Shown here piece by piece: positions 1,332-28,840 of a stretch of DNA of 64,000 nucleotides. The notes under the pieces are model-generated. The model made no database searches. It was not told where the DNA came from and worked only from the letters and a program-made list of their open reading frames with translations. This DNA is from a virus. Each line of letters begins with the position of its first letter. Position 1 is the stretch's first letter. Position numbers and translations under genes: made by a program. The stretch is taken from the UHGV virus genome UHGV-0211472. One strand, 5' to 3'.

Positions 1332-1332
1332 T

Positions 1333-2367
1333 ATGGCGTATGGAATATGGACAACGCCAGTCGGACCGGGACCAGCTTCTCCGGCTGAGCTTTTTATTGA
1401 TAGTGATTCTACTTTCCCTCAATTCAAGAACAGGGTTAGTGGTAATTACAACTTTAATGGGGGTAGTAGAGATTTCCCTATTTCTGGATGGGATGGCTCA
1501 GGCCAAATCGTTGTAGTCCCCACCGGCTCTTTGTGTTGGCAATGGGAAGTCCCTCCTAATCTTGTCCCTGATGTGTATGTTGTAAACAATATCAGTATTG
1601 TAAATAACTCAACTTTCAGGGTTAGTATAAACATGAATCCCGGAAGTAATCCACTGTTTGACGTGGCTTTCAATGTATACCAAATATGGCCTAGAGCCAA
1701 TAGAAACTATGGTATAACCTTTTCAAACACAGCTGATTACTTCTCTATATCAGATGCTGGAGTTGTTGGTCAATGTATTTGGGCTTGGGAAGGAAACATT
1801 AATGGCTCTATGCAAATACCAGCAATCAGTGGTTTTGATATGTCTAGAGCTTCAGTGTTTGCTAACTGGTCTGGAGGACAAGGTTTACTCTATGATGCTG
1901 GGAGTCGTAATATCAGGGTTTACCAAAACAGAACCTATGATAACGGAAACAACAACCAAACAGGAACAATTAATAATGTGAGAGTTGCAGTGTTCTGTAA
2001 CGGGGCTGGTGTTCCTACTCACAATGGTGGATTAAACATATATTCACCTAATGGTTCTCAGTGTGTATTTTCTACTTACAGAACACCTTTTATGGTTGAT
2101 CGTTTTATGGCTATGAGTGGAGGGAATACTGGACTTACATATCCTATGATACCTCTGACGAACGGGGCAGGTTCTATTAGGGGTCAGGCGGGGAGTTGGT
2201 ATTTCCAACATGCTAGATCTCATACGATGAACGGCTCTTCTTTTGGTACAGGGTATGGTCGATATATGTTCCAGTGGGATAGAAACTACGATATGGGTGG
2301 TGGTGGGGCTATCTCCCTTCAGATTCCAGTCCTAGATGCTAGGAAGATTTTTAGAAGCATACAATAA
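1333..2367 (+). CDS. putative tail/structural protein (344 aa)
   Basis: start ATG 1 nt after the stop of the upstream gene (TAATATGG); Gly/Asn-rich, structural-module context. Confidence 0.5.
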   Translation: MAYGIWTTPVGPGPASPAELFIDSDSTFPQFKNRVSGNYNFNGGSRDFPISGWDGSGQIVVVPTGSLCWQWEVPPNLVPDVYVVNNISIVNNSTFRVSINMNPGSNPLFDVAFNVYQIWPRANRNYGITFSNTADYFSISDAGVVGQCIWAWEGNINGSMQIPAISGFDMSRASVFANWSGGQGLLYDAGSRNIRVYQNRTYDNGNNNQTGTINNVRVAVFCNGAGVPTHNGGLNIYSPNGSQCVFSTYRTPFMVDRFMAMSGGNTGLTYPMIPLTNGAGSIRGQAGSWYFQHARSHTMNGSSFGTGYGRYMFQWDRNYDMGGGGAISLQIPVLDARKIFRSIQ

Positions 2368-2376
2368 GGAGAACTT

Positions 2377-3159
2377 ATGGCAATTAGAATGGGTATAGAA
2401 GAATTAGACCCGATGGTTCAACAGGCTTCAAAGAAGTATGGTATACCAGCTGCTTTGATTCATGCTGTAATTCAAAGGGAGTCTAGTGGTCGTCCTAAGG
2501 TGGCTTCCGGAACTGGTCCTGTTGGTTTGATGCAGATCAGTAAAGGGTTAGCTAAAGATTACGGTTATAAACTAGAAGATAGGCTTGACCCAGCTAAGAA
2601 TATCGACATGGGTGCTCGCTATATCAGAGATAACCTTAAAGCTTTTAATGGTGATGTTAAGAAAGCAATGGTTGGTTATTCAGAAGGTATTGGTGGAGCT
2701 AAGCAGATGTTCGCTGGTAAAAGAGGGTTTACTCCTCAGGCTCTCGACTCTATGAATAATAAGCACTTCCTTCCTTTCTACGGTGATGCAGCTTCTCAGA
2801 TTGCTAACCCTATTGGAGCTTTACAAGCTATCCAACCAGTCAACCAGTTTAATCCTGACTTACTAGACAGAGAGAAAGCTGCACAAGCTCCAACTCAGGC
2901 GGAGATTGCTGCTTCTAAGACAGGAGCTTTAGGAGGTAATCCGGTAGAGTTTTACTCTGATGAAGTGCAGGAAGGGGAAGATCAGAAGCCTCAACAGAAC
3001 TTTGGTAATGCAGTATTAGGAGTAGCTGCTATGCTTGCTGGTAAACCTCCTACTTCTCAAACAGTTCAGAGGGCAAGTGCACCACATGCAGCAGGTTCTC
3101 AGTACAGTCCACAAACACAAGCAGTGCTTAGACGTTTGGCTAGCATTGGTGTAAAGTAA
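2377..3159 (+). CDS. lytic transglycosylase (SLT-domain) protein, probably virion-associated peptidoglycan hydrolase
   Basis: N-terminal motif ...IHAVIQRESSGRPKVASGTGPVGLMQI matches the SLT catalytic Glu-Ser...GLMQ signature; RBS AAGGAG; located between structural genes. Confidence 0.7.
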   Translation: MAIRMGIEELDPMVQQASKKYGIPAALIHAVIQRESSGRPKVASGTGPVGLMQISKGLAKDYGYKLEDRLDPAKNIDMGARYIRDNLKAFNGDVKKAMVGYSEGIGGAKQMFAGKRGFTPQALDSMNNKHFLPFYGDAASQIANPIGALQAIQPVNQFNPDLLDREKAAQAPTQAEIAASKTGALGGNPVEFYSDEVQEGEDQKPQQNFGNAVLGVAAMLAGKPPTSQTVQRASAPHAAGSQYSPQTQAVLRRLASIGVK

Positions 3160-3178
3160 TAATCTTTAAGGAGGACTT

Positions 3179-4231
3179 ATGTCTTTATTTGGAAAATCAG
3201 CTTCTAGCAAAACCACAGTGGCCCCTTCCTCTCAGGTTGATGCCCTGCTGAAGCAGATTGTTGCTAATGCTCAGAAGATGCAGAACAACGATCAGGGATT
3301 CATCTCCCAACAGCTGGCTGGGTTTAATAACAATCAACAAGGTGCTCTGAACAACTTATCAGCTTCTACAACTCAGAAGCAACTGGCTGACATGTACACA
3401 CCTCGTACACAGCAAGGGCTGGACCAACTTAACTCTCTTGCTCAACAGTATCAGAATATTGTCAATGGTGGTGGAGTGACAGCCGAGGGGGTTAATAACT
3501 TTAGTAAAGGGTTAAATAATTCTGCTCTTGCTCAAGCAACTAGTAAAGCAGCTTCTAATGTATCTCTCGGAAATGGTTCTGACTCAGGTTCTCTCCGTAG
3601 AGCTGCTGCTCAGGGTGCTGCTCTGAACGGTGCTAATACAAACTTAGCTCGTACTATCAGTGGTAAGAATATGGGAATCAGTGCCCTGCAACAAGACCAG
3701 AACTTCCAGAGAGGTTTGCTTGGTGCTCAGTCTGGTCTAGCTGGACAGAATCTCAATCTTGGTGCTCAAGGTGTTCAGGCAACTCAACAAGCTATTCAGA
3801 ATCAACTTATGGCTGGCAATCTACAACAGCAACAGGCTCAAGCACAAGCTGATATCAATTGGCAGAACGCTATTGGTTCTCAGCAGTACGGATGGAATCA
3901 GCTTAACAACCAACTTAATGTATTAAATAGTGTAAGCCCAATGGCTGGATATACAATTAAGAATGCCGCTCCGGGCGTTAACGTAGGACAACAGCTCCTA
4001 GGTGCTGGTATCACTGGTTTAGGTATTGCGGGTCGTATGGGTGCTTTCTCTCCTAACCAACAGACTCAGAATGCTTGGAGTTCATATAACAACTCGGGTG
4101 GGCAATCTGGAATGGCTGGTCCTATGATTGGAGGTTCTAATCTTTCTCAACAGAGGGGTCAGTCTAACTGGTTATCCACGGCAGGGAGTAATATCTTAGG
4201 TGGGGTCTTGGGGGCATTTGGAGCAAACTAA
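3179..4231 (+). CDS. Gln/Asn/Gly-rich structural protein (paralog A)
   Basis: RBS AAGGAGG; begins MSLFGK...; shares the GFNNNQ..ALNNL segment and overall Q/N/G-rich composition with the next ORF. Confidence 0.55.
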   Translation: MSLFGKSASSKTTVAPSSQVDALLKQIVANAQKMQNNDQGFISQQLAGFNNNQQGALNNLSASTTQKQLADMYTPRTQQGLDQLNSLAQQYQNIVNGGGVTAEGVNNFSKGLNNSALAQATSKAASNVSLGNGSDSGSLRRAAAQGAALNGANTNLARTISGKNMGISALQQDQNFQRGLLGAQSGLAGQNLNLGAQGVQATQQAIQNQLMAGNLQQQQAQAQADINWQNAIGSQQYGWNQLNNQLNVLNSVSPMAGYTIKNAAPGVNVGQQLLGAGITGLGIAGRMGAFSPNQQTQNAWSSYNNSGGQSGMAGPMIGGSNLSQQRGQSNWLSTAGSNILGGVLGAFGAN

Positions 4232-12334: not shown

Positions 12335-13156
12335 TTATTTCCAAGTTTTTTCGAGCCATGACCAATCAAATAGGTCTTCCGGAGTCTGACCAACAAATAG
12401 AAGCCGAGCATTCTCAAGCATCTTCTCTTCATCTTCAGTATCGAACTTCTTATAATATTCCATTCGTACTATATGATACATGGTCCACTTATCTGTAACA
12501 TCAGCCAGTAATTTAGCTGCTGCCCTCTTCCCTATGCCTTGACGTCGAAGCTGAAGCTTACCACCCCACATAACCTCTTTACGTTCCCCACATCCGGGAA
12601 TATTATCCGTACCATCCCCAATCAACATTTGATAGAAGAAGTTTTGCCATGAGACTAAATCAGATACGTAGTGAGGGGGTACCTCTTTCTGCCTTTCTCC
12701 ACAAGCCCAGCGATAGTGCCATCCGGGGGTTATTAATAAATCTTTGTCTCTAGTACAAATGATAGTGTTCTTGTCTCTACGTTGCCTTTCAGCTAGTGCA
12801 TCATCAGCCTCTCTCCCAAATACATCTATGTATTCATATTTACCTTTAATATAATCACCAACATTTTGCCAGTGAAAAGGTCTTTCTCCGGGAGGTCTAT
12901 TTGCTTTGTAGTCTTGCTGCTTAGCGACATCGAAACGGAAGTTACCACCTTCGCTGAAGTAGAACACAACCTTACTACAACCTGAGCGAGCAATGATAGT
13001 ATCTATCTTGTACTGAAGTCGTTCAATCATGAAATTATAGTCAACTGGAACACGTCCTGTGTCAAGAAAGGGATGCTCCTGAGTAAGAGCACCTACTTCA
13101 TAACGAAGAACATCCGCGTCCACAATTGCTACTTCAGGGAGCTTAACATCTCCCAT
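12335..13156 (-). CDS. 5'-3' exonuclease / flap endonuclease (FEN family, T7 gene 6-like)
   Basis: acidic catalytic clusters and H3TH-like motif MLIGDGTDNIPG; 273 aa. Confidence 0.8.
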   Translation of the reverse strand: MGDVKLPEVAIVDADVLRYEVGALTQEHPFLDTGRVPVDYNFMIERLQYKIDTIIARSGCSKVVFYFSEGGNFRFDVAKQQDYKANRPPGERPFHWQNVGDYIKGKYEYIDVFGREADDALAERQRRDKNTIICTRDKDLLITPGWHYRWACGERQKEVPPHYVSDLVSWQNFFYQMLIGDGTDNIPGCGERKEVMWGGKLQLRRQGIGKRAAAKLLADVTDKWTMYHIVRMEYYKKFDTEDEEKMLENARLLFVGQTPEDLFDWSWLEKTWK

Positions 13157-14620: not shown

Positions 14621-15367
14621 TTAGAATGGGCTATCGTTGTCGTCTTCGTAAGTAGAAGCAGGTTCTTTATCAATCGTAGGGATTGAAGGAGTAGCTTCTT
14701 TCTGTTCTGTTTCAGAAGCACGAGTAATTTCACGACCAGCCAGAGGCATGTTCTTAGCGTCAATAGCTTGGGTAAGCAGGTTGCGCTGGAACGGGAACAT
14801 CAGTTGATAGGATGCTACGTTCTCATCGGTTTCAGCATACGGTTCGAAGAATACCAGAGGACTACGAGCTTCACCAACTGCTGCACGATATTTGGTTGGG
14901 ATTGGAGAAATGGTCTTGATGGAGTTTTTAACTTCACCAGCTTTGTTAGTGTAAGAATTAACCAGAATGTTAACAGGCTGACCTAACAACACATCCTTAA
15001 ACCAAGACAGATCACCTTTCAGTGCTTGGATGCTTGGGTCAATCATCTTGCAGAGATCAAGGATACCAGAGTTCTTGGCTCGTGGGTTTACATCATAGCT
15101 CTTGAACTGGCAAGCCGGACGCGGTTCTAATGCCTTACCATCGGAATCTTTACCAGTAGCATCAACACCAATCAGCTCGAAAGCCAAATCCATACGGAAA
15201 GCCGGATTCTTAGGGGTTACTGCTTTGGTCTTCGGGTCAATCCAAGGGTCACGATTGTGAACACCCAAACCTACTACACGAACGATACGTGCTTCGTATT
15301 CACCATCAGGGATTACATCGTAGTTGGATTTACGGGAAGCAGTTGCGATAGTTGGGATCATGCTCAT
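14621..15367 (-). CDS. single-stranded DNA-binding protein candidate
   Basis: 248 aa ending in acidic tail ...TYEDDNDSPF with C-terminal Phe, as in SSB/T7 gp2.5-type proteins; within replication module. Confidence 0.5.
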   Translation of the reverse strand: MSMIPTIATASRKSNYDVIPDGEYEARIVRVVGLGVHNRDPWIDPKTKAVTPKNPAFRMDLAFELIGVDATGKDSDGKALEPRPACQFKSYDVNPRAKNSGILDLCKMIDPSIQALKGDLSWFKDVLLGQPVNILVNSYTNKAGEVKNSIKTISPIPTKYRAAVGEARSPLVFFEPYAETDENVASYQLMFPFQRNLLTQAIDAKNMPLAGREITRASETEQKEATPSIPTIDKEPASTYEDDNDSPF

Positions 15368-16680: not shown

Positions 16681-18525
16681 TTAGTGCGTATGCATCCAAT
16701 TTAATCCAATCTGACAATCAGAAGCCAGAGGACATTCCATGTTCAAGTACTCACCAGCCTTCTTAACACAAAGCTCAGTGTGCTCTTTGAGTTTCTGTAC
16801 ATCATTACGATTTACTGAGAATTGGCCCTCATCGTGCATATCAATTACCTTAGCACAACGAACCCCATCCTTCTCAATCCACTTGTTAAGGAACATCATA
16901 GCATATTTCATAACAACAGCACCAGCACATTGCAGGAGTGTGTTAAGGGCTTTATGAACCATAACTTTACCAGTGGCATCTCTTCTCATTGTAATCTTAC
17001 GACCATCAACTCCAATCAAGTATCCTTGAGCAGCTTTCTCTGTCATACGATCAATGAGGATTGCAATACACGGGTTCTCTGCTAAGAAACGCGCTCGCAT
17101 CACTGAACCTTCGTCAGCCCCACCACCTACAATTGAACCAAGCTTAGCATCACCAGCACCGTAGTTGAATGCATAGATAAATGTCTTAGCGTTGTCACGA
17201 GTAGGAAGACCAGCAAGTTTCTGGTTGTGGGAGTGGATATCACCTTCAAGGAGAATATCACGATACATAACAGCAGAAGCTAAACCGCGTTCTGCCAGAG
17301 CTTTCTTAGCTGGGTTATTCTCTTCGATTGCTTCAGCAAGCATATCTCTACACTCTTTGATGAGGTAGTGAGCGAGCATACGAAGTTCAAGTCCAGAACC
17401 ATCATACCCTAAGAATATTTCTTTACCAGCGGGTATGTAATATTTGTAAGCACCTACAGGTTTGTCTTTCTTCCCCGGCTTACCTTTCTCGTAAATTACG
17501 TTAGTACCTTTTCGTATATAACAATCATCAGGAACAACGTTAGTAATAACGAAAGGACGAGAGTGATCACTGTCTGAGTTATAGTCAGACTCAAACAAAC
17601 TGCGACACTCATGACCAAACAAACCACGGGAGGGAATATTAACCACGATACGATGTTTGAATCGAAAAGTCGGCGTAGCACAGCTGTTAGCTTCTGCCGA
17701 AAGTTTACCATCTTTGCGTTCCTTTGCTATGAGTCCGCTGATAAGGCCTAGCCTGTGAGCCGCTACAACACGTCTCTTAAGCAAACTTCCGACACTCCCT
17801 AGCTCACCCCCTAATCCTTCTTCAAGGGTCTCCTCGAGGTTTGTAGGAGCTGTAGGCCACTTGTTTGAGGTAGCTAGTGCTATCTTAATCTCGTCAAAAG
17901 TGATAGGCCTACGTCGGTTAGGATTTAAACCTAAACCAAATACATAAGCCTTCATGTAGTTCTTAGTCTTAAACCTAAAATGCTTCTCTAAGAACTTCCT
18001 GATATCAGCGTCAACCATCTCGGCTGTCTGCTTCTGTTTAGCATTACCTCGCATCCAAGCTGAATACCATGCTTGGTATGTTCCATACTTTCTCATATCT
18101 TTCTTAATTTCAAAAGTATTCCAAGGCTTCTTAGATACGTTAAACTCTGGAGGAAGAAAGCCCTCATCCATAAGAGCTTCTTTAACTCGTGCATCCTTCG
18201 ATGGGTCAAAGTCTACGTATTCGACACAGGTAAAAGCTCCACCAATGTCTTCTCTCTTCAGCCCAACCCTATCGCAATAAGCTTGAGGCCACTTCTGCAA
18301 AGCCCCAGACTTCTTAAATGGCTTCATATAAGTAGAGCCATCTAATCTCATCTTAGGTAAGAGAGGAATTAGTTCTTTATCAATATTAACAATAATCTCT
18401 TTAAGGAGGTGAACATACCACCGAGCATTTCTTCGGTTGAAACTCACTCCGTGCTTTGCTTGCTTAGAGATTATATCAGCGACAGTCATCTCTGTCAAAA
18501 ATGGGAGAGCGTCCGGGTTGCTCAC
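16681..18525 (-). CDS. DNA polymerase family A, polymerase domain only
   Basis: motif A DGSGLELR, motif B RDNAKTFIYAFNYGAGDAKLG, motif C IDMHDEG; no 3'-5' exonuclease motifs in this ORF. Confidence 0.85.
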   Translation of the reverse strand: MSNPDALPFLTEMTVADIISKQAKHGVSFNRRNARWYVHLLKEIIVNIDKELIPLLPKMRLDGSTYMKPFKKSGALQKWPQAYCDRVGLKREDIGGAFTCVEYVDFDPSKDARVKEALMDEGFLPPEFNVSKKPWNTFEIKKDMRKYGTYQAWYSAWMRGNAKQKQTAEMVDADIRKFLEKHFRFKTKNYMKAYVFGLGLNPNRRRPITFDEIKIALATSNKWPTAPTNLEETLEEGLGGELGSVGSLLKRRVVAAHRLGLISGLIAKERKDGKLSAEANSCATPTFRFKHRIVVNIPSRGLFGHECRSLFESDYNSDSDHSRPFVITNVVPDDCYIRKGTNVIYEKGKPGKKDKPVGAYKYYIPAGKEIFLGYDGSGLELRMLAHYLIKECRDMLAEAIEENNPAKKALAERGLASAVMYRDILLEGDIHSHNQKLAGLPTRDNAKTFIYAFNYGAGDAKLGSIVGGGADEGSVMRARFLAENPCIAILIDRMTEKAAQGYLIGVDGRKITMRRDATGKVMVHKALNTLLQCAGAVVMKYAMMFLNKWIEKDGVRCAKVIDMHDEGQFSVNRNDVQKLKEHTELCVKKAGEYLNMECPLASDCQIGLNWMHTH

Positions 18526-18541
18526 TTTATACTCCTTTAAA

Positions 18542-18946
18542 TTATTGGTAAAGTAAATCTGTAAATGCTTGATTGTCAGCTATTGCATCTAGGTCATTAG
18601 GAGATACTCGGATAGTGTTACCTTCAACTCTCCACGGAGTTGGCGTAGGTGAAGACCTAACTTCAAGAGGCTGCTCTCTGACTAGATGGGCCATGACCTC
18701 CTGATCGGCAACTTCCTCTCTTTCTCGAATATCTCTCTGGATGTAGGCCAGCTTCATGCCCCAAGCTTCTTCAAACTCTTGAGGGTGTTTATCACTGATC
18801 ACTACATATCGACGATTGACGGAAAACCTTCTTGCTTTCAAAATAAGATTGCAAAGATCTTCTACTTCATCTTCTTCTAGGTTGTTATAAATATCATCCC
18901 ACTTCACTACACAGAAGCGGTTTTGGTGTCTAGTTGGTAGTGGCAT
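18542..18946 (-). CDS. hypothetical protein (134 aa)
   Basis: ORF in replication/metabolism operon. Confidence 0.45.
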   Translation of the reverse strand: MPLPTRHQNRFCVVKWDDIYNNLEEDEVEDLCNLILKARRFSVNRRYVVISDKHPQEFEEAWGMKLAYIQRDIREREEVADQEVMAHLVREQPLEVRSSPTPTPWRVEGNTIRVSPNDLDAIADNQAFTDLLYQ

Positions 18947-18949
18947 AGC

Positions 18950-19234
18950 TTAACCTTTCGGGAATGGCATTAAAGATTCCATAGCAGATTTAATTTCGCT
19001 ATTGATTCGAGCATCACGATAAGAGATAAATTTACCTTTGCTATCACGTAACATTACATGGGTTCTGGCTGTTTCGTGAGGAAGCAGTGTGATACTGGTT
19101 GGGATAGTATCAATCCCTACAGGTAGTTTGTAAATAGTCTTACTCTCAGCTAGTAGGTAAGACCAAGTACATGGTTTCTTCTCCGGATGGTTAGGGTATG
19201 TATCTCTAATCTGAACCATAGCTAATTTATTCAT
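18950..19234 (-). CDS. hypothetical protein, tandem paralog 1
   Basis: C-terminal ...KGKFISYRDARINSEIKSAMESLMPFPKG closely resembles the adjacent ORF. Confidence 0.45.
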   Translation of the reverse strand: MNKLAMVQIRDTYPNHPEKKPCTWSYLLAESKTIYKLPVGIDTIPTSITLLPHETARTHVMLRDSKGKFISYRDARINSEIKSAMESLMPFPKG

Positions 19235-19235
19235 A

Positions 19236-19487
19236 TTAAACTCCTTTAGGAAATGGGATGAGGTTTTCTATTGCAACACGGAAAGGTTTTTCTACATTCT
19301 TATTTTTATAAGAGATGAACTTCCCATCAGCCCCACGAAGGATTACGTTAGTGCGAGCTGTATTGGGATCTAGATTGATCATAGAGGTGATGTTCTTTTT
19401 TGAGTTGTTGTAGTTGTTATCGAAAGTCCACTTATCCAGATGATTAGCTATTACATCAATAATAGTTACAGTTTTTACAATAGACAT
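19236..19487 (-). CDS. hypothetical protein, tandem paralog 2
   Basis: C-terminal ...DGKFISYKNKNVEKPFRVAIENLIPFPKGV; paralog of 18950..19234. Confidence 0.45.
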   Translation of the reverse strand: MSIVKTVTIIDVIANHLDKWTFDNNYNNSKKNITSMINLDPNTARTNVILRGADGKFISYKNKNVEKPFRVAIENLIPFPKGV

Positions 19488-19520
19488 ATTTGTTACCTAA
19501 GAAATTTAATTTAGTTTATA

Positions 19521-19550
19521 TAAAAGAAAAGGCCACCCGATTGGGTAGCC
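19521..19550 (-). terminator. rho-independent terminator (minus strand)
   Basis: hairpin GGCCACCC-GATT-GGGTAGCC followed on the minus strand by a T-run; directly after the stop of 19556..19873. Confidence 0.4.
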
Positions 19551-19555
19551 TCATA

Positions 19556-19873
19556 TTACGATGAGCTTAAAGCTCCTTTGCGAGATCCAGCTGCTTTTCC
19601 AGCTCGATCACCACTTTTGCCGCCGTTTGAACGGTTTGAGCTGACTGATTCAACACGTAAGTTGCTTGACGCATTAGAGCCTCCAGACTTGATAGCTCGT
19701 TTGTGTCCAACATCTTTACCTCTGACAGCAGCTTTTCCATCGCGCTTTTCAACGATGCGACGTGCACGGTGGCGCTGAGCATCTCCGCTCTTGCTCCCAA
19801 TGCCTGTCTCACCACGGGCAATTGCGGTACGTCTTTCTTGTGCATAATCTCTCTTTCCTACATGGTCTGCCAT
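19556..19873 (-). CDS. basic Arg/Lys/Gly-rich protein (105 aa)
   Basis: ATG preceded by AAGGAG with 6-nt spacer; overlapping alternative frame 19567..19845 judged less likely. Confidence 0.4.
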   Translation of the reverse strand: MADHVGKRDYAQERRTAIARGETGIGSKSGDAQRHRARRIVEKRDGKAAVRGKDVGHKRAIKSGGSNASSNLRVESVSSNRSNGGKSGDRAGKAAGSRKGALSSS

Positions 19874-19929
19874 TTAGAACTCCTTAATATATCAGTGTAC
19901 ACTAAGGAGTATACATTATAAGTTACTGT

Positions 19930-20667
19930 TTAAGCTTTCTTTTCCATTGCTTTAACAATCGCCTTACAGAAACCAGAACGAACAATGTCATCCGATTCGC
20001 CGTCTACAATCTCAGCAAACTCATACAGATCGTGTTCATCAATAAAGTTAGTAGCCCAAGTTAGACCACTCTCGCGACCACGCATATCATGCTGGTTTGT
20101 ATCACCCATGCAGAACAATTGAGAGGTTTCTCCCAATCGAGTCATGATAGAGAAGGCTTCATCTTTAGTGGTGTTCTGGAACTCATCCACGATAACAATG
20201 GCATCATTGAAGGAACGACCACGGAGATATTCCAGAGGTACAAATTCAATGTTACCATTTCCGATCTGGCATTCATAGAATCCCTTACCATATCGCTGAG
20301 TGATAACATCAATGATAGGCATCAGGTAAGGTTCAAATTTCTCACGCATTCCTCCCGGAAGTAATCCAAGAGAATTACCCATACCAACTGAAGGACGACT
20401 AAGAATGATCTTTTGAATCTTACCGCTCTTCAGTGCATCGATAACTGTGGAGGTAATTACAAAGGTCTTACCACAGCCCGCAGGAGCGTCTGTGAACACA
20501 ACTTGCTTAGTCTTGATAGCATTGAGTAGCTCAGACTGAAACTGGTTCTGAGGGACTACAGGCTTTGCTAAAACCACCTCTTCATACTCTCGCTTACCCT
20601 TACGAGTAACGAGTGCTTCCCGACGAAGGTCTTTCCGTGATTCTTTCCGTGATTGACGACGACTCAT
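19930..20667 (-). CDS. phoH: PhoH-like ATPase
   Basis: Walker A DAPAGCGKTFV and overall PhoH-like layout. Confidence 0.8.
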   Translation of the reverse strand: MSRRQSRKESRKDLRREALVTRKGKREYEEVVLAKPVVPQNQFQSELLNAIKTKQVVFTDAPAGCGKTFVITSTVIDALKSGKIQKIILSRPSVGMGNSLGLLPGGMREKFEPYLMPIIDVITQRYGKGFYECQIGNGNIEFVPLEYLRGRSFNDAIVIVDEFQNTTKDEAFSIMTRLGETSQLFCMGDTNQHDMRGRESGLTWATNFIDEHDLYEFAEIVDGESDDIVRSGFCKAIVKAMEKKA

Positions 20668-20849
20668 TTACGCTCTCCAATTTCTTCGTAATGACACTCA
20701 GTAGTTAAGCAGTCTTTACAGATTGCTGTATAAACCCTGACGTTAGTAAATCGTTTGTTCTTCCCTTTGGTTGGAGAGTCTTTGGCAAGCTCTCTGATAA
20801 CCTTGTTACTTAAATGAAGGTTTGTTCCTTCACATCTAGAGCACTTCAT
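20664..20849 (-). CDS. small zinc-ribbon protein (61 aa)
   Basis: CxxC ... CxxC arrangement (MKCSRCEG ... CKDCLTTEC). Confidence 0.4.
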   Translation of the reverse strand: MKCSRCEGTNLHLSNKVIRELAKDSPTKGKNKRFTNVRVYTAICKDCLTTECHYEEIGERK

Positions 20850-21165
20850 GGTTCATATCTTTATGAATCCTGTAAACAGCTGTCGCCATACAAGCAACAG
20901 CCTCATTGTGTGGGAGGTGCATCCCTGTAGAACCATCCCAATCTTTGAACTCATTGTCAAAGACTCCAGTAGGTTCTGGATACAGAGCTTGCAGCTCAAC
21001 CAAATCATTAGCAACTTGTTGCCATTTATCATCAGACCAGATAGGGTCATCCAACCAGTAATACAAATAGGAATGGATGATCAATTGCCTTCTGTGCCGA
21101 TTAATTATTTCAGCGGGACTTATCTCACTTCCGTTTGAAGTCCTAAATGTATTACTGTCAATCAT
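20836..21165 (-). CDS. hypothetical protein (109 aa)
   Basis: ORF in metabolism block. Confidence 0.45.
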   Translation of the reverse strand: MIDSNTFRTSNGSEISPAEIINRHRRQLIIHSYLYYWLDDPIWSDDKWQQVANDLVELQALYPEPTGVFDNEFKDWDGSTGMHLPHNEAVACMATAVYRIHKDMNHEVL

Positions 21166-21167
21166 GA

Positions 21168-21824
21168 TTACTTATTCCAAGTAGTTGATAAGGCTTTCCA
21201 AGAGATTGGATAGAGCTTCTTCATCTCTTCATCAATAGTTTGTGCAAATAGTCGGACCTCATACTGAGCGTGTTCTGACAGACGTTGACGGCATACTTCT
21301 GACCAGCCATATAAGGAGCCAGTCCAGATCCACTCCGTCGTCATTCCCTGAGGTAGGACAAACCGAGCTTGCTCAGGGGCAATCAGGTCAATCAGTTTTT
21401 CATAATTACTAACAGCTACTTCATATGCCTCGTTAATCAGTGTGAGAGCTTCTGCACGGGCTTCGTCTTGTAATAGGATACCAGAACCTTTGTGAAGGTC
21501 TTCAGGTCGGGAGAAGATCTCTTGTGGAATGAATACATCAACGTCTCCATCTTTATATCGACGGCTCATCTCATTCCAGCTAAACCCCGTCTGATGTTTT
21601 CCTAGCTGGCGAGCAATAGCAATAGGTGCTACACATCGGAAGGTTACTTGTGGGTGCCTAAAAGGAGTCACATGTTTTTCACGAGCGAGGAAGTTGATGA
21701 GACGTTCATCACGTTCATTTAAATCACCTTCACGGGTTACTCCAAAGGATACACGAGCTGCATTTACTACAGTTTTATCCGAGCCTAAAAACTCTACCAG
21801 TTCTGCTTTAAGCTGATCATTCAT
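21168..21824 (-). CDS. ThyX-like (flavin-dependent thymidylate synthase family) protein with divergent active-site motif
   Basis: segment FRCVAPIAIARQLGKHQTGFSWNEMSRRY resembles the ThyX RHR...S..RY signature but reads KHQ with the Ser position shifted. Confidence 0.6.
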   Translation of the reverse strand: MNDQLKAELVEFLGSDKTVVNAARVSFGVTREGDLNERDERLINFLAREKHVTPFRHPQVTFRCVAPIAIARQLGKHQTGFSWNEMSRRYKDGDVDVFIPQEIFSRPEDLHKGSGILLQDEARAEALTLINEAYEVAVSNYEKLIDLIAPEQARFVLPQGMTTEWIWTGSLYGWSEVCRQRLSEHAQYEVRLFAQTIDEEMKKLYPISWKALSTTWNK

Positions 21825-21855
21825 TACTTTTTCTCTCCATCCATGAATTTCCTTA

Positions 21856-22065
21856 TTAATATTCTTTTACATAATAAACCACTAAGGTTCCCATCTCTGA
21901 CAATGTTGATTTATGTAAGCTTACTTTACTATAAATCTTTGGAGACATCTTAAGAGCCTTCTTAAAACGGCGAGCGTCTTTACGAGTAGCAAAGTGCTCT
22001 GTAACAGGTATAGCCGGGTCTTGGTAGAGGTAGTATACCACCGTCCAATATTTTTTCATAATCAA
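21856..22065 (-). CDS. hypothetical protein (69 aa)
   Basis: ORF. Confidence 0.4.
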   Translation of the reverse strand: MIMKKYWTVVYYLYQDPAIPVTEHFATRKDARRFKKALKMSPKIYSKVSLHKSTLSEMGTLVVYYVKEY

Positions 22066-22334
22066 ACACCTAGGGCAGTAGTTAAGAATGCTTTCAGGTT
22101 TGCTTCGGTTTGCATACCAGAGAGGCTGTAATGTGCACCACTGTTACGGTCAGGTACAACGAAAGCAGGGATGCTACGAACTCCGTACTTAACAGCTTGT
22201 TCACGACCATCACCTTCAAGGATGTTAATCTCTTCCACTTCTACATCGAACTCCTTAACAACCTTCTCAAAGATAGGAGCCATTGCTTTACATGGAGCAC
22301 ACTGATCACTATAAAACTTAATCACTTTAGACAT
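22062..22334 (-). CDS. thioredoxin/glutaredoxin-like redox protein
   Basis: CxxC active site YSDQCAPCKAM in a 90-aa thioredoxin-fold-sized protein. Confidence 0.65.
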   Translation of the reverse strand: MSKVIKFYSDQCAPCKAMAPIFEKVVKEFDVEVEEINILEGDGREQAVKYGVRSIPAFVVPDRNSGAHYSLSGMQTEANLKAFLTTALGV

Positions 22335-22342
22335 GTAAACCC

Positions 22343-22522
22343 TTATGCAGTCAGGAGGTGAAGCAGGAATGGGATAACAACAGCTACAATAACCATGATG
22401 GTTGATGCTGTTTGAAGCTCACCTTTCTTGTCAGGGGTTTCTTCAATAAGCTTACCAGAAGCCCAATAAACACCACCACCAATAAAGATAGCCCAAATAC
22501 CCCATACGATTGCTGATAACAT
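22343..22522 (-). CDS. small two-helix membrane protein (59 aa)
   Basis: not in ORF track; ATG preceded by AAGGA; MLSAIVWGIWAIFIGGGVYWASGKLIEETPDKKGELQTASTIMVIVAVVIPFLLHLLTA has two hydrophobic helices; preferred over overlapping track ORF 22384..22683. Confidence 0.35.
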   Translation of the reverse strand: MLSAIVWGIWAIFIGGGVYWASGKLIEETPDKKGELQTASTIMVIVAVVIPFLLHLLTA

Positions 22523-22582
22523 ATATCTATATCCTTATAAATAAGTTCGCCCCACCTCGGGTTAGGAGACAGGGCGTAGGTT

Positions 22583-23146
22583 TTAGTAAGACACATCACC
22601 ACTTGAATGGGACATGTTGCTCTTGACAAAGTAACAATACTTGCCAAGACCTTCATTAATTTCTTGAAGCATACTCTGATCAACTGGATAAGTAGCTAAA
22701 TCGCCATCAAACTCATCCATCTTCTCAATAATACACATCAAGGTCATGCACATATCAGAGAGCATACCATCCATGTCTAGATCAGCATTACCCTCTGAGA
22801 ACCAAGCATGAGAGAGGTAGTTAGCTGCTGTAGCATCCACTTTAACACAGTGGTAGCGCATACGTTCAGCAATACGATCTCCTACTTGTCGTGCGTAATC
22901 TTCCAGCTCGTCAAACATACCATGAACACCCTGAAACCCTGCACCAGAGACGTTCCAGTGGTAGTTCTTAGCTTTGATATGCAAGAGTTCCATGTTAGCT
23001 TGTAAGCAGCTCAGGATGTGTTCTAGGCTGTTTCCGCTAATCATGCCTTGCATCGTTTCAAGGCGAGAGATTGAAAGCTCAGACCGGTCTAACACACTAT
23101 AGCTGTCACGACCAATCTCAGGTAAATCAAAAACATTCTTATGCAT
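22583..23146 (-). CDS. Dps/ferritin-like protein
   Basis: NYHWNVSGAGFQGVHGMFDELEDYARQVGDRIAERM resembles the Dps HWNV.G..F..LH..FEE ferroxidase-site region; preferred start ATG at 23146 with GGAGAAA upstream (track ORF extends to 23203). Confidence 0.55.
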   Translation of the reverse strand: MHKNVFDLPEIGRDSYSVLDRSELSISRLETMQGMISGNSLEHILSCLQANMELLHIKAKNYHWNVSGAGFQGVHGMFDELEDYARQVGDRIAERMRYHCVKVDATAANYLSHAWFSEGNADLDMDGMLSDMCMTLMCIIEKMDEFDGDLATYPVDQSMLQEINEGLGKYCYFVKSNMSHSSGDVSY

Positions 23147-23468
23147 TTGGCTTTTCTCCATCAAGTTCAACTGAATTAGCAACGTTACGTTCCAGATTGT
23201 CAATTACCTGCTGGGTAATTACGATGCAGTTCTGTGGATCTACTGACTTAGAACGCCCCATTTCAGGGTCATACACCTTAACACGCTTAGCAGTTGAACC
23301 TGTAACCTGAAGAACCTTCAACAGATATCCCTGATTACCAATAGACCAAGCAACAACATCACGATTCTTGATAAAGCGACCAAGCATATCACGATGATAA
23401 AACTGTTGCATCACCTTGGATTTTGTAATCTCTTCAGTGGGCGGGGCCACTTTACTCAAATCTAACAT
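23139..23468 (-). CDS. hypothetical protein (109 aa)
   Basis: ORF. Confidence 0.45.
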   Translation of the reverse strand: MLDLSKVAPPTEEITKSKVMQQFYHRDMLGRFIKNRDVVAWSIGNQGYLLKVLQVTGSTAKRVKVYDPEMGRSKSVDPQNCIVITQQVIDNLERNVANSVELDGEKPNA

Positions 23469-23540
23469 AACTCTCTCCTGTAAAATACAAATTCTTATTG
23501 TACTCTATATACATTTGAGAGTTACCATATCTACTACCAA

Positions 23541-23768
23541 TTAGTAGTGTACTTTTCCACTGAGATAAACACGACCAGAGGAATATTCTCTGGCCTTATG
23601 GATGCTAACGCTCTTAGTTAAGTCCCCATGAAACATAGACTTTTTAAAATCTCGAGCCCGTTGACGAGTAGGTAATGAGGTCATAGTCGTACAACCAGAT
23701 GACCACTTAATCTTCACTAACCAGAACTTTTTCATAATGATATCACACACCTTTAGACGCAACCACAC
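23541..23768 (-). CDS. hypothetical protein (75 aa)
   Basis: ORF. Confidence 0.4.
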   Translation of the reverse strand: MWLRLKVCDIIMKKFWLVKIKWSSGCTTMTSLPTRQRARDFKKSMFHGDLTKSVSIHKAREYSSGRVYLSGKVHY

Positions 23769-24276
23769 CTTCAGAGTTATTATAACGACCCTTCACTGCA
23801 TAAGAATGCTCTCCTGCATGAGAGTGCTCAAACATAACCATCTGACCAACACGCATACCAGAACGGATTCTTAAGCTGTGATGTTTGGTCACATTATGAA
23901 ATTCAAACGTCAATTTACTGTTATTAAACCCCCCATCTGCCCACCCGGCGTGAAGATGGTTCAAACCACAACGAGCCATAGATGAACGAAGAACAAACAA
24001 GCTTGAGATGTTATCTGGAAGGTTAAACTCTTCCATAGAGTGAGCCAAGAAGAACTGACCCGGAGTAATAACCAAACCCTCTTCAGGAATCTTTACTTCC
24101 TTCCACTGAAGATTCTCTTTCGCATCAATATCAACGATGCCATCAGCCTGTTCTTCAACAAGGATAGTATCACCAATACGGATATCCACACTAGCAGCGT
24201 TAACATACTTATGCTCCGCATCCAAATAGCCATTGTCAATTACATCGTGCAGTTCAACACTTCCTAGTAAACTCAT
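23743..24276 (-). CDS. dCTP deaminase / dUTPase-superfamily protein
   Basis: motif ASVDIRIGDTIL resembles the dCTP deaminase (A/N)SxDLRLG signature; 177 aa. Confidence 0.65.
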   Translation of the reverse strand: MSLLGSVELHDVIDNGYLDAEHKYVNAASVDIRIGDTILVEEQADGIVDIDAKENLQWKEVKIPEEGLVITPGQFFLAHSMEEFNLPDNISSLFVLRSSMARCGLNHLHAGWADGGFNNSKLTFEFHNVTKHHSLRIRSGMRVGQMVMFEHSHAGEHSYAVKGRYNNSEGVVASKGV

Positions 24277-24297
24277 TCTTATTCCTTAGTTATTTGT

Positions 24298-25599
24298 TCA
24301 CACTTCAAAAGAGAAACCGCGACCCGATTCATCGGCAAACCGAACTGTACGGGTTTGAGGTTCTAATACTTCAGGGTTGTTGGCAACAAATCTATCAGCG
24401 AGGCTATCTCCTAAATCCTCTATCACATCTTCATCAGTCCACACAGTCCTAACCGGTACATCAAAGTCACCAGCAACAAAACCCTGACCGGAGAATTGAC
24501 GTGCGCTGACAGTAAAGTCATTTGACCGACCACGAGAAGAACCAGTCATCCACCGCTCTGTAGAACCGTTCGTAATACCAAGAGCCTCTTCAAAAGATGT
24601 TCTAGGATCGGGGCTTTCACTTCGTGACTCTTGTGCTCGACGCATTTCAGGGACTGCAAACACCCCTTCCATTGTGTTGTGATGATTAGTCTCATCTTCC
24701 CGACCAAGTAGATCTCCACTTGTATTGGTTGTTAAGTTTGTCAACCCTTCAGACCAATACGCACTAATCTGACTAGATCCATGAACACTTGACATTAACT
24801 GGATTTCTTCATAAGGGATTCCAAAGAATCGACTCATGTCACGATTAACACAATACTGAGCACTTGTTGTATCCTCAACAAGAGCAACCTGACCCCATTC
24901 ATTGATCAGATGACTGACCGGTTGAGGTGTGGGAAGATATCGAGATTGTGCCATATATTGGTATGCAACAGATGGAGCGGAGAATCTTAATACCTGTGAA
25001 TTAGGCCACTTCTTGTGAACATACTTGATTTCACGACCAGAAACAACTACTGGACAGGGGGAGGTCATAGCCAAATATCCATGAGGGGTCATGAATAGAT
25101 TGTCAAGAGTAATCGCACCACGGCACATCATAGGAAAGCTGTCCAACACCTCTTCAATAGAAGTAGGATAGTTAAACATGAATTGGATACGAACCCCACT
25201 CCACTGGAACTCAATAATATCGGTAAATGTTAACAGAGATCCTTCAGCGTAGGCTTCATTCGTAGCTTCAGCAAGAAGGGAAGAGTACTCAATATCTTGA
25301 GACTCGAGCCACTCTTTCACGTTACTTTCAACCTCTCGTCCGAGATCTTGCCACTGGTCATGGTGGATAAAGGTGTTTCGAGTTCTTGGGGCCTGTCCTC
25401 TGACAATAAAGATATCAATGTCATGAGGTGCTCTGTTATTAAGAACAGCATCACGAACAGCCCCACCAGTGATGATGGGACAAATACAGTCTGGAATCAA
25501 GTTGTTGTTAATCAGCTGTTCAATGAAGTGACGACCAACAGCGATATCAGGTTGTTGAGCAACCTTATCTGCAATTCGGTTAATCGGGATAACAATCAT
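24298..25599 (-). CDS. Pol-beta-superfamily nucleotidyltransferase with CCA-adding-enzyme-like head
   Basis: ITGGAVRDAVLNNRAPHDIDIFIV matches the GGxVRD...DxD head-domain motif of class II tRNA nucleotidyltransferases/poly(A) polymerases; preferred start ATG 25599 (one nt after the exonuclease stop); long Ser/Gly/Glu-rich C-terminal region. Confidence 0.6.
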   Translation of the reverse strand: MIVIPINRIADKVAQQPDIAVGRHFIEQLINNNLIPDCICPIITGGAVRDAVLNNRAPHDIDIFIVRGQAPRTRNTFIHHDQWQDLGREVESNVKEWLESQDIEYSSLLAEATNEAYAEGSLLTFTDIIEFQWSGVRIQFMFNYPTSIEEVLDSFPMMCRGAITLDNLFMTPHGYLAMTSPCPVVVSGREIKYVHKKWPNSQVLRFSAPSVAYQYMAQSRYLPTPQPVSHLINEWGQVALVEDTTSAQYCVNRDMSRFFGIPYEEIQLMSSVHGSSQISAYWSEGLTNLTTNTSGDLLGREDETNHHNTMEGVFAVPEMRRAQESRSESPDPRTSFEEALGITNGSTERWMTGSSRGRSNDFTVSARQFSGQGFVAGDFDVPVRTVWTDEDVIEDLGDSLADRFVANNPEVLEPQTRTVRFADESGRGFSFEV

Positions 25600-25600
25600 T

Positions 25601-26158
25601 TTACATTTTCCAATATAATGAAGGTGGGTCGTAAGGGTCAAATCCTGTGAGTTCACACAAGTATTTATAAACCTTAACAGTTAAATTAACGTCCTGTTCA
25701 CAATAAGTAAACATATCCTCAGTGAAAGCATCCCATGCTTCCTCTTGCTCACCGTAATCACCTTTAAGTTCCCCTAAGAACTCACCCCATTGCTTCAAGC
25801 CATGACCTCTTGGGCCATGTCTAGGGTCGCCTTTCGGGTACTCAGGACTGTCACCAATACGGTCAGGTTTAAGATATCGACTAAGACATAAAGTGTCAAA
25901 GACGTTAAAACGATAGTTAATCAGATTGGGATACATCTTCTTCAGAGCACAAAGGTCGAAGTCAATAATATTGTGACCCACGAGCACATCTGCTTCTGTA
26001 AGTTTATGAATCCCATCTTCAATTTGGTGAGGCCGATAGCCCCACCTTTCACCAGTTTCAACATCGAAAACATAAATACACCATACTTTGGTTATATCAT
26101 CGTATAGTGCATTACTCTCAATATCGAATGCAAACACTTTCTTCTTTTTCTTTACCAC
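25601..26158 (-). CDS. DnaQ-like 3'-5' exonuclease (stand-alone proofreading domain of family A polymerase type)
   Basis: Exo I FDIES, Exo II HNIIDFD, Exo III YCEQD motifs; GTG start overlapping the upstream stop. Confidence 0.7.
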
Positions 26159-26712
26159 GGTGAAGCTCCATCTGCTTGGCTGACGAGAGAAGCTGCATCC
26201 TCTCCGTTAGTTAAAACGAATGGATTATCTTCATCAACTTCAAAGTCTTCCCTTTCTACAAGTCTACCGGTTTCACTGATATACTTAGTATAACAGACAC
26301 CTGTCTGACCGTAGTTACGTTCTTTCAGTAATCGAATGACTGAGAGGTTCTTAGCTAAGCCGTCAGCTTGCTTGTCACGCTCAAAGCCAATGATACACTG
26401 ACACCAACGCATAAGAGAACGAGAGCCAGTGAACTGTACTTCACGTACCTGTCCACCTTCTTCATGAGGAGCACCACCTGCCGGAGCATTAAGGTGAGAT
26501 AGCACGAAAGCGGTAAAGTCTAACTCTTTACACATACCAGCAAGCTCGGAAGCGATCTTACTGATTTCAGTGTTAATCTCTGAAGGTGTTAAATGAGATA
26601 CCAGAGCGGTAATGTTATCAAGGATGATAAATTTACACTGGTTTTCAACTACCCAGAAACGAATACACTGTTTAATGTCTTCCCATTCGTTTTGCAATAA
26701 TTCAATGAAGGA
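26152..26712 (-). CDS. primase-helicase, exon 2 (helicase C-terminal part)
   Basis: [33 protein letters not shown]... continues the T7-gp4-type helicase (H2 onward) in frame once the intron is removed; 5' boundary predicted. Confidence 0.65.
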
Positions 26713-26947
26713 CGCAACTCCTTCACCCGTAGCATTATATCTACTGCCCGTGGTTTCCCACGGGATTGGACTATATCATCACTCCTATTAAGGAGGCTAG
26801 GCGCTTCCACTAGCATTAGCTTCTAGTGTACTCCTTTCGGATAGTCTCTGCACTTTCTAGGATGTATCCTAGCTTAGCTCAGGATTGGCATATCTTTCGA
26901 CTTAGCTTTCCCTGAATTCACCTAGTTTTACTTCGGCCATTGTGTTA
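26713..26947 (-). ncRNA. group I self-splicing intron (ORF-less) within primase-helicase gene
   Basis: no ORF; begins with in-frame UAA; P1 pairing of exon end ACUUCGGU with intron GGCCGAAGU (terminal U-G wobble); R-like GCAGAGACUA and S-like GAUAUAGUCC; P9-like hairpin CCCGUGG-GAAA-CCACGGG; terminal G; boundaries uncertain by a few nt. Confidence 0.65.
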
Positions 26948-28195
26948 ACCGAAGTTGTCATACAAGAAGAATTTGTCTGCATAACGAAGTGCTTCATTAC
27001 GCAAATCCTCTTCATCATATTCAACATCAGGTCGGTGGAAAGGAATTGATGCTGACTTACCAGCGATGTTCTTAACAGACATGCCTACCTTCTCTTCCAA
27101 GAAGAAGCCACCCCCATTAAAACCATGTTCTAAGCACAGATGAGCAACAAGTTCGTGAGCAATTAGTGTTTTACCACTACCTACACCACCACCGATGGCT
27201 ACCACCTCTCCCCATCGAATACCGAAGGTCATCTCATTCAGAGTCTTCCACGGGTAGGGGATACCCCACTCCGCTTTCTTCAGAGCATCATCAAGACAAT
27301 CAAAGATTGTTACAGCTCCGGCAGGAGATTCCCGCTTTGCTGAATACTTGAGAATGTTGAATAACTCTTGACCGCGACCAGACAGAAGCATGTCATTCGC
27401 ATCCTTAATCTCTTTCTCCACACCGTTGTATGGGAAAGTTCCTTTAGGAATACGAGCAAACTTAACATGAGGGAATAAAGAACGACCTTTTGTTAAAGCT
27501 ATCTCACCTGCATCATCGTTGTCCATGCAGAGCACAACCTCCTCAAAACCATTTACGAAGTCTCGGTTACGAGACAACACAGAAGAGATTGAACCTGCAC
27601 CGAACGGTAAAGAAACACAGGCTGGTTTAATGTTTGTTGCATTTGTAAAAGCTGTAAGGACATGGAAACCAGACATACAAGATAGCGGGTCTTCAAAAAT
27701 GAACAGCTTCTTGTTGTACACGTCTCCCCGTTGAGCTTGTGCCATACCAAATAAATCTGCTTCTTTCACACTGCCGACGTAATAAAACTTCTTACTATCT
27801 AGCAGTTTAACCTCATATCCGACAATGTTTCCATCACGTTCACGAGGAAAGAAGTAACTGTCTGGTGTCTGACCATCAGTTTGACTGAGACCAATACGAC
27901 ACTCAAAACGCTCTGATACAGCCTTGGGAATTAAACGGCGAGTAAGTTCACCCTGAGGGAGTTCTAAGCAATCATCTAAGACTTCTCTCAACTCTTCAGG
28001 GGATAACTCTTTCTTCTCATTTGGAGTAGGTGTAGTGCCCTTTTCGAACACTTCGTAATTCCCACAACGGTTACAACTTCCCCACTCCTCACCGGTCTCT
28101 TCGTTACGGAAGAGAATCATGTGGTTGTGGGTTTTATCACGACCATGAGAGATACATTCCTTACAACCTGTGTCTCCCAAAATGATCTTTGACAT
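26948..28195 (-). CDS. primase-helicase, exon 1 (zinc-binding primase, TOPRIM, helicase Walker A)
   Basis: N-terminal Cys4 zinc ribbon (CKECISHG...CNRCGNYE), TOPRIM-like acidic motifs, Walker A GGGVGSGKT, ends ...KFFLYDNFG like T7 gp4 ...FHLYDSFA. Confidence 0.8.
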
Positions 28196-28425: not shown

Positions 28426-28840
28426 TTTTCAGATACTCTGACCAGTCACCAGATTCAACCAGAACATCTTGTTCTTCGTCAATATGGTAGATATAGCATT
28501 CAACAATTTCACCTGAATCCATCTTGACGTTGACCAGAGACCTGTTGTAGAAGCTATCTTCAGGGCTATGTTTGTTGTAACCTTCCAGTCGGTCATATGG
28601 ACCTTCCAGACCTGCTTTGTCAGTAGCAAACACTTCTACACGAACAGGCTTATTGTTATTGCTGTGTGCGAGAGAGATGCTCGGGAAGTAGGAACCACCG
28701 TAACGGAACAGATCGAAGTTATCTTCAGTCCAACCTTCACCGATTGACTTAGCACCAGCTCGGTCATTAACTAAATAGTTAGCTTGACCACTTCTCAAAG
28801 ACCCATAACATGCGACTAAAACTTTATTTTGTTCTGACAT
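28415..28840 (-). CDS. gamma-glutamyl cyclotransferase-like (AIG2/GGCT family) protein
   Basis: N-terminal VLVACYGSLRSGQ (YGSL motif) and downstream ...GPYDRLEGY... typical of AIG2/GGCT fold. Confidence 0.65.
   Translation of the reverse strand: MSEQNKVLVACYGSLRSGQANYLVNDRAGAKSIGEGWTEDNFDLFRYGGSYFPSISLAHSNNNKPVRVEVFATDKAGLEGPYDRLEGYNKHSPEDSFYNRSLVNVKMDSGEIVECYIYHIDEEQDVLVESGDWSEYLKSES

Follow-up and report, generated by a model that had tools for sequence, protein, structure and literature searches.

In E. coli DNA polymerase III, the polymerase alpha (DnaE) and the proofreading exonuclease epsilon (DnaQ) are separate subunits. The family A DNA polymerase of bacteriophage T7, gene product 5 (gp5), is a single chain that works with host thioredoxin. 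The stretch of DNA analyzed here, 64,000 nucleotides (nt) of UHGV virus genome UHGV-0211472 (hereafter the window), which we assign to a phiEco32-like (Kuravirus-group) coliphage, encodes the exonuclease and polymerase parts of a T7-type enzyme in two separate genes about 7 kilobases (kb) apart. The likeness to polymerase III is a functional analogy only, because that enzyme combines a family C polymerase with a DnaQ-type exonuclease and its arrangement is not homologous. The split in the window is real yet already known, having been annotated in 2008 and published in 2012 and 2023. The GenBank record of phiEco32 (EU330206, 2008) notes gp53 as 'DNA polymerase-like protein; lacks 5'-3' and 3'-5' exonuclease domains' and gp74 as 'type I DNA polymerase; contains 3'-5' exonuclease domain'. 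Both activities were then reported to lie on separate genes in every LUZ24-group phage (PMC3517423, 2012), and a passage of the same paper cites an earlier report of a similar organization for phiEco32. More recently, the separation was described as common to all members of the Kuravirus-like group, for which separately encoded 5'-3' and 3'-5' exonuclease subunits are listed, and as present also in phages 7-11, Privateer, Vp_R1 and BUCT695 (PMC9965538, 2023). PHROGs includes families named 'DNA polymerase exonuclease subunit', and with the split already in GenBank, in these papers and in the PHROG names, it matters little as a discovery. We found no biochemical work on the split enzymes of this phage group in the searchable literature. 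In a 2014 description of phage UFV-P2 (PMC3890496), the pair of genes is referred to as 'the two exons' of the polymerase, a wording that the evidence presented here does not support. A 2023 survey of family A polymerases reported exonuclease/polymerase gene splitting "for the first time" in cyanophages (PMC10201439), and the older, wider-spaced phiEco32-type split therefore deserves citation beside the cyanophage case.

Both genes lie in a long minus-strand module devoted to replication and nucleotide metabolism, as judged from the composition and open reading frame (ORF) layout of the window. Its relevant features, with lengths in amino acids (aa) and the sources of each assignment, are the following:

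16681..18525, minus strand: family A (T7-type) DNA polymerase without an exonuclease domain, 614 aa (Pfam, phmmer, hhalign, AlphaFold2 (AF2)/Foldseek)
18526..25600, minus strand: cassette of 16 same-strand ORFs (ORF list, Pfam, phiEco32 and SU10 annotations)
25601..26158, minus strand: predicted stand-alone 3'-5' proofreading exonuclease subunit of the DEDDy type, 185 aa (Pfam, PDB, hhalign, PHROG)
26152..28195, minus strand: T7 gp4-type primase/helicase interrupted by a group I intron, with exon 1 at 26948..28195 and exon 2 at 26152..26694 (phiEco32 gp75)

The 11-kb region that contains both genes is about 90-92% identical in nucleotide sequence to phiEco32, SU10, 172-1, NJ01 and many other Kuravirus-like coliphages. 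It matches 108 phage records, 55 of which cover at least 80% of the region. The exonuclease ORF is the ortholog of phiEco32 gp74 and has the same length (558 nt), the polymerase ORF is the ortholog of gp53 and likewise has the same length (1845 nt), and the two stand in the same order and on the same strand as in phiEco32. The split itself is thus identical in phiEco32 and the window, at about 91% nucleotide identity and with the same kinds of genes in between; what sets the window apart from phiEco32 and SU10 is a primase/helicase gene interrupted by a group I intron and a cassette that is a little shorter. A preliminary description, made from the letters of the window alone, had located the two ORFs correctly, reporting motifs A, B and C but no Exo motifs in the polymerase ORF and the motifs FDIES, HNIIDFD and YCEQD in the exonuclease ORF, all of which we recovered, although it did not give the strand. 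Its estimates of about 7 kb and more than 15 intervening genes (nucleotidyltransferase, dCTP deaminase-like, Dps-like, thioredoxin-like, ThyX-like and PhoH genes among them) also agree with our measurement of a 7,075-nt gap at 18526..25600 that holds 16 ORFs.

The exonuclease ORF has the motifs of a PolA N-terminal-type fold, with Exo I (DxE) in FDIES at aa 11-15 (26114..26128), Exo II (NxxxFD) in HNIIDFD at aa 62-68 (25955..25975) and Exo III (YxxxD) in YCEQD at aa 152-156 (25691..25705). Across 37 homologs, reaching down to 32% identity, no change is seen at D12, E14, D68 or D156, and Y152 is nearly invariant. The best Pfam family is PF01612 DNA_pol_A_exo1 (E 6.7e-9, 36.2 bits versus a gathering score of 23.6), followed by a weak match to RNase_H_2 (E 1.5e-4), and the Pfam matches listed at E up to 0.01 include no DnaQ-type family. 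Sequence matches in the PDB were to T7 DNA polymerase chains only (residues 3-182, E 9e-12), with no DnaQ/epsilon structure at E up to 1. A profile of the 37 homologs aligned by hhalign to T7 gp5 residues 2-199 (probability 99.8, E 1.5e-27), a span that covers the PP motif of the interdomain linker, and the ORF matched a PHROG 'DNA polymerase exonuclease subunit' family at 2.8e-77. When compared by tblastn, the ORF matched 2,203 phage records; in 60 rows sampled down the ranking, almost every match fell on a DNA polymerase gene, for the most part in a T7-like phage. Word-indexed homologs are all short (59 of 59, 101-247 aa). An exhaustive profile search with the exonuclease family yielded 5,709 representatives and found that the family grades into the N-terminal domains of ordinary fused PolAs; the best 150 of these representatives comprise 38 proteins shorter than 300 aa, 24 of intermediate length and 88 of at least 550 aa in which the match is N-terminal. 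The exonuclease ORF has a GGAG sequence 8 nt ahead of its GTG start, and this start overlaps the stop of the primase/helicase gene, which lies directly upstream, by 7 nt, suggesting that translation of the exonuclease is coupled to that of the primase/helicase gene.

The polymerase ORF is assigned to family A and to its T7-like cluster. It matches Pfam PF00476 DNA_pol_A (E 4.3e-23, 82.3 bits versus a gathering score of 34.3), is closer to T7 gp5 than to Klenow by phmmer (1.7e-32 versus 4e-6), and in the form of a profile of 40 homologs aligns to T7 gp5 residues 205-704 (hhalign probability 100, E 1.2e-54). Its AF2 model has a predicted local distance difference test (pLDDT) score of 89.7 and finds T7 gp5 as best Foldseek match (E 1.6e-26), with all of the top 27 matches being T7 gp5 chains. 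Motif A is LGYDGSGLELRMLAHY at aa 372-387, which includes the DxSxLE-type LGYDGSGLELR; motif B is RDNAKTFIYAFNYGAG at aa 443-458, where the pattern RxxxKxxxYxxxYG is matched by RDNAKTFIYAFNYG; and motif C (HDE) is VIDMHDEGQ at aa 560-568. Residues D375, R443, K447, Y451, Y455, H564, D565, E566 and the C-terminal H614 are invariant in the 40 homologs. Y451 aligns with the motif B tyrosine of T7 (Y526), and a tyrosine at this discrimination position is a feature of the T7-like cluster (PMC10201439). The ORF has an AAGGAG Shine-Dalgarno sequence 7 nt upstream of its own GTG start.

The possibility of an exonuclease domain hidden in the polymerase ORF, also raised in the preliminary description, is not borne out by the alignment. 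Residue 3 of the ORF corresponds to gp5 residue 205, and the two proteins are colinear from there to the C-terminus (hhalign). The N-terminal 360 aa match the thumb and palm of gp5 from residue 205 onward and contain no cryptic exonuclease domain; the tripeptide DxE occurs in them only once. Two insertions without a T7 gp5 counterpart are found in the polymerase, one all-helical and about 100 aa long (aa ~135-243) and one of about 45 aa, beta-rich with short strands, just ahead of motif A (aa ~317-366). Both are predicted with good confidence, both are missing also from fused relatives of 597-633 aa, and neither resembles an RNase H-fold exonuclease or bears DEDD motifs.

Taken together, the two ORFs are homologous to consecutive, non-overlapping PolA segments, with scores that greatly exceed chance expectation, have kept their catalytic residues and carry translation signals of their own. 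The alignment to T7 gp5, to which the preliminary description had looked for domain boundaries, assigns residues 2-199 to the exonuclease and 205-704 to the polymerase, which places the break in the interdomain linker and leaves the two ORFs complementary to gp5, with no missing stretch and no overlap. Both ORFs also match adjacent segments of one PHROG 'DNA polymerase' profile (667-826 for the exonuclease, 836-1233 for the polymerase). In seven single-chain relatives (597-633 aa), the exonuclease ORF and then the polymerase ORF are matched colinearly, the former by residues ~2-168 at 35-41% identity and the latter by residues from ~164 to the end. Among solved structures, that of T7 gp5 comes closest to both ORFs, and gp5 shares with the window the catalytic motifs, the motif B tyrosine, the C-terminal histidine and the neighborhood of a primase/helicase gene. 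However, gp5 is one polypeptide, and the window polymerase has a shorter thioredoxin-binding loop region and the two extra insertions, in a phage that encodes a thioredoxin of its own.

Comparison with related phages, which the preliminary description had proposed, shows the split arrangement to be conserved across at least three phage lineages and in many genomes. The order of primase/helicase, exonuclease, cassette and polymerase is kept in phiEco32, SU10, Salmonella phage 7-11 and Bruynoghevirus Ab22, with a distance between exonuclease and polymerase of about 8.0 kb in phiEco32, 8.6 kb in SU10, 6.7 kb in 7-11 and 1.9 kb in Ab22, compared to 7.1 kb in the window. The window thus has the Kuravirus/7-11/LUZ24-like arrangement, in which the primase/helicase gene is directly followed by the exonuclease gene, with the polymerase gene further downstream on the same strand. 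All polymerase homologs that cover at least 97% of the query (down to ~36% identity) are exonuclease-less proteins of ~490-620 aa, the LUZ24-type 'DNA polymerase part II' among them, and fused forms appear in the ranking only at lower scores and lower coverage.

Two of these lineages bear closer comparison. In LUZ24-like phages (Bruynoghevirus), the proteins named 'DNA polymerase part I' or 'exonuclease subunit' and 'part II' are separated at the same fission point as in the window, the gene order is the same (primase/helicase, overlapping exonuclease gene, cassette, polymerase) and the polymerase is ~40% identical to that of the window over 99% of its length; the differences are a gap of only ~1.9 kb filled with small genes and a polymerase of ~545 aa, about 70 aa shorter than that of the window. 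LUZ24 itself, unlike the window, has an intron in its polymerase gene (PMC3517423). Salmonella phage 7-11 (Moazamivirus, Grimontviridae) encodes a stand-alone 'DNA polymerase exonuclease subunit' (gp082) that is 48% identical to the window exonuclease, and its 611-aa DNA polymerase I (gp063) lies ~6.7 kb away. Its gap shares dCTP deaminase, PhoH, thioredoxin, ThyX and Dps-like genes with the window cassette, but in a different order, and an endonuclease VII gene stands between primase/helicase and exonuclease. S-SBP1-like cyanophages likewise carry a T7-like PolA in two genes, exonuclease and polymerase (Czernecki et al. 2023, PMC10201439), and the AF2 complex of the split S-SBP1 enzyme superposes on an unsplit relative (PMC10201439). 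There, however, the genes are adjacent and the split is an independent one that arose by a recent +1 frameshift, whereas in the window they lie 7 kb apart and the split is common to several distant lineages.

We consider it highly probable that a T7 gp5-type family A polymerase gene underwent an ancient fission in its interdomain linker and that the resulting parts act as a non-covalent heterodimer. On this account, a gp5-type gene would have broken at the linker long ago, the N-terminal exonuclease part would have remained beside the primase/helicase gene, and the polymerase part would have become a separate gene, now 7 kb downstream on the same strand, as a variable cassette of nucleotide-metabolism and small genes accumulated in between. 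The two polypeptides would associate non-covalently into a gp5-like heterodimer, in which the exonuclease would proofread for the polymerase inside a T7-like replisome with the gp4-type primase/helicase. A single old fission followed by accretion of genes in the gap would be the simplest reading of the comparisons above, and we infer heterodimer assembly and proofreading in trans. Three points weigh against this account: physical association of this particular pair, with proofreading in trans, is inferred; the single ancestral fission is drawn from similarity ranking and synteny rather than from phylogeny; and the polymerase bears the two lineage-specific insertions, helical at aa ~135-243 and beta at aa ~317-366. 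That these insertions act in docking the exonuclease subunit is speculation.

Other explanations differ in what they make of the small ORF and of the distance between the genes. The preliminary description had asked whether the exonuclease ORF groups with stand-alone DnaQ/epsilon-type enzymes, and if the 185-aa ORF were such an independent exonuclease, or another of the RNase H fold, the polymerase would be left without proofreading. The ORF is indeed small and stand-alone like DnaQ, and it has the weak RNase_H_2 match (1.5e-4), but its best Pfam family is DNA_pol_A_exo1 with no DnaQ-type family in the list, its PDB matches and hhalign alignment (linker PP motif included) lead to gp5, it shares a PHROG profile with the polymerase in adjacent segments, and 88 of its 150 best representatives are long and match at the N-terminus. 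A DnaQ or Pol III epsilon-type identity was rejected because DnaQ is absent from the listed Pfam matches (E up to 0.01) and from the PDB matches (E up to 1), and for the better match to T7 gp5; the explanation is refuted at the level of homology, and we regard it as very improbable overall. It is scarcely credible that the two ORFs are rejoined into one polypeptide, whether by RNA splicing or trans-splicing, a split intein or programmed frameshifting, even though this genome, like the polymerase genes of relatives, contains group I introns. Rejoining would have to span 16 protein-coding ORFs, many with clear Pfam families, and a distance that varies from 1.9 to ~8 kb among relatives; Rfam finds no ribozyme or intron in 16681..26158, the sole Rfam intron of the window being in the primase/helicase gene; the exonuclease ends near gp5 residue 199 and the polymerase begins near 205, which therefore leaves no spare sequence for intein halves; and both ORFs come with a Shine-Dalgarno sequence and GTG start of their own. 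An intron- or intein-interrupted polymerase gene was rejected on the same evidence, and the earlier statements that this is not an intron-type interruption and that the two domains, if both are functional, must work as separate polypeptides are supported.

The remaining alternatives accept two functional genes. In one, these do not form one enzyme: the exonuclease would have an independent role, for example alongside the primase/helicase, in recombination or in the salvage of nucleotides, and replication by the polymerase would have no dedicated proofreading or would involve a host factor. Such a role fits an exonuclease gene that lies at a distance from the polymerase gene and whose start, in phiEco32, SU10, Ab22 and the window alike, overlaps the primase/helicase gene end; it also fits the lineage-specific insertions of the polymerase and the lack of biochemistry on the pair in the searchable literature. 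However, the position of the exonuclease gene is explained by ancestry, because a T7-like polymerase gene normally follows the primase/helicase gene closely, and the exonuclease has kept the linker segment and all DEDDy residues. In addition, the analogous split enzyme of cyanophages is predicted to assemble like the unsplit one, and the exonuclease domain is described as a known structural requirement for PolA stability (PMC10201439). We think an independent role quite unlikely. It is also unlikely, if somewhat easier to entertain, that the separation is functional rather than a neutral relic, with the exonuclease delivered via the helicase or dosed apart from the polymerase and the insertions docking it in place of the covalent link; if true, this would imply a tunable level of proofreading and mutation rate, or an exonuclease that serves a second process. 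Under the ancient-fission reading that we prefer, the pair would offer a natural, evolutionarily stable two-subunit T7-type polymerase usable as an experimental system, possibly for studying communication between exonuclease and polymerase domains and for asking whether fidelity is tunable in trans.

The cassette between the two genes contains nucleotidyltransferase, dCTP deaminase, Dps/ferritin-like, thioredoxin, ThyX, Nlig-Ia and PhoH genes as well as small ORFs without assigned function, and the same cassette genes are annotated in phiEco32 and SU10. Two of its members adjoin the polymerase question:

22062..22334, minus strand: phage thioredoxin, 90 aa, in the cassette (Pfam Thioredoxin 4.2e-13)
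24298..25656, minus strand: nucleotidyltransferase, mechanically called ORF with a GTG start at 25656 and a 56-nt overlap with the exonuclease gene

We offer only as a hypothesis that the phage thioredoxin may be the processivity partner of the T7-type polymerase; a phage thioredoxin has been proposed as processivity factor for the related phage Privateer (PMC7881722). The Pfam match to a nucleotidyltransferase head domain in the cassette is below the gathering score. Comparison with phiEco32 gp73 indicates that the true start of the nucleotidyltransferase is probably the ATG at 25599, one base past the exonuclease stop, and not the GTG at 25656. The 109-aa product of an ORF at 20836..21165 (minus strand) is made up solely of the Ia domain that binds NAD+ in NAD-dependent DNA ligase (Pfam Nlig-Ia, 1.5e-35), and this protein is labeled 'NAD-dependent DNA ligase' in phiEco32 and SU10 despite lacking catalytic domains.

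One further gene of the window belongs here:

12335..13156, minus strand: predicted 5'-3' exonuclease, FEN-like, 273 aa (PHROG 'exonuclease' 6.1e-64; Pfam 5_3_exonuc_N 6.6e-6, below gathering score)

By these matches, the predicted 5'-3' exonuclease puts a third Pol I-type activity on its own gene. An ORF at 14621..15367 (minus strand, 248 aa) has an acidic tail with a terminal Phe (...YEDDNDSPF), and the C-terminus of the primase/helicase (near 26152) is likewise an acidic tail, with a terminal Trp. Considered as a gp2.5-like single-stranded DNA-binding protein, the 248-aa ORF does not significantly resemble the gp2.5-like protein of Ab22, and it falls in a PHROG family without assigned function. 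In T7, the acidic tails of gp2.5 and gp4 bind gp5, and the tails of the 248-aa ORF and of the primase/helicase recall these.

The primase/helicase gene has Pfam matches to DnaB_C and Toprim_2, both below their gathering scores, and is interrupted by the following element:

26695..26947, minus strand: group I intron, 253 nt, ORF-less (Rfam RF00028, 86.3 bits, E 1.4e-20)

The gene is uninterrupted in phiEco32, where gp75 is a single 1791-nt ORF, and in SU10. With intron boundaries set by exact string matching against phiEco32, removal of the intron produces a 596-aa primase/helicase that equals phiEco32 gp75 at 595 of 597 compared positions, stop included. The intron is preceded by an exon U and ends in G, and in its predicted fold (z = -5.06) the 5' exon end is paired with an intron segment just downstream, in a P1-like manner. 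This intron is context only and has no part in the polymerase split.

Among 50,697 phage records, the intron occurs in near-full form only in Escherichia phage VTCCBPA_211 (PP989838.1, 3004..3736), where the same intron is 739 nt long and contains an ORF (3109..3639) for a 176-aa HNH_3/NUMOD4/HTH homing endonuclease; the window copy thus looks like an endonuclease-less derivative. In the VTCCBPA_211 record, exon 1 is wrongly labeled 'DNA directed DNA polymerase' and exon 2 'helicase'. The window also has, about 0.6 kb upstream of its primase/helicase gene, a free-standing HNH_3/NUMOD4 endonuclease gene (28824..29372, minus strand, 182 aa), whose product is 38% identical to the VTCCBPA_211 intron endonuclease over 113 aa. 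A group I intron with an endonuclease VII-type ORF breaks the polymerase gene of several Kuravirus-like relatives near motif B, after ~aa 450, as seen in Bas93 (613..3163, annotated as a joined coding sequence) and in truncated-length homologs of ~437-460 aa. Combined with the exonuclease split, this intron leaves the enzyme of such relatives in three pieces at the DNA level. The polymerase-gene introns of these relatives partly resemble the primase/helicase intron of the window.

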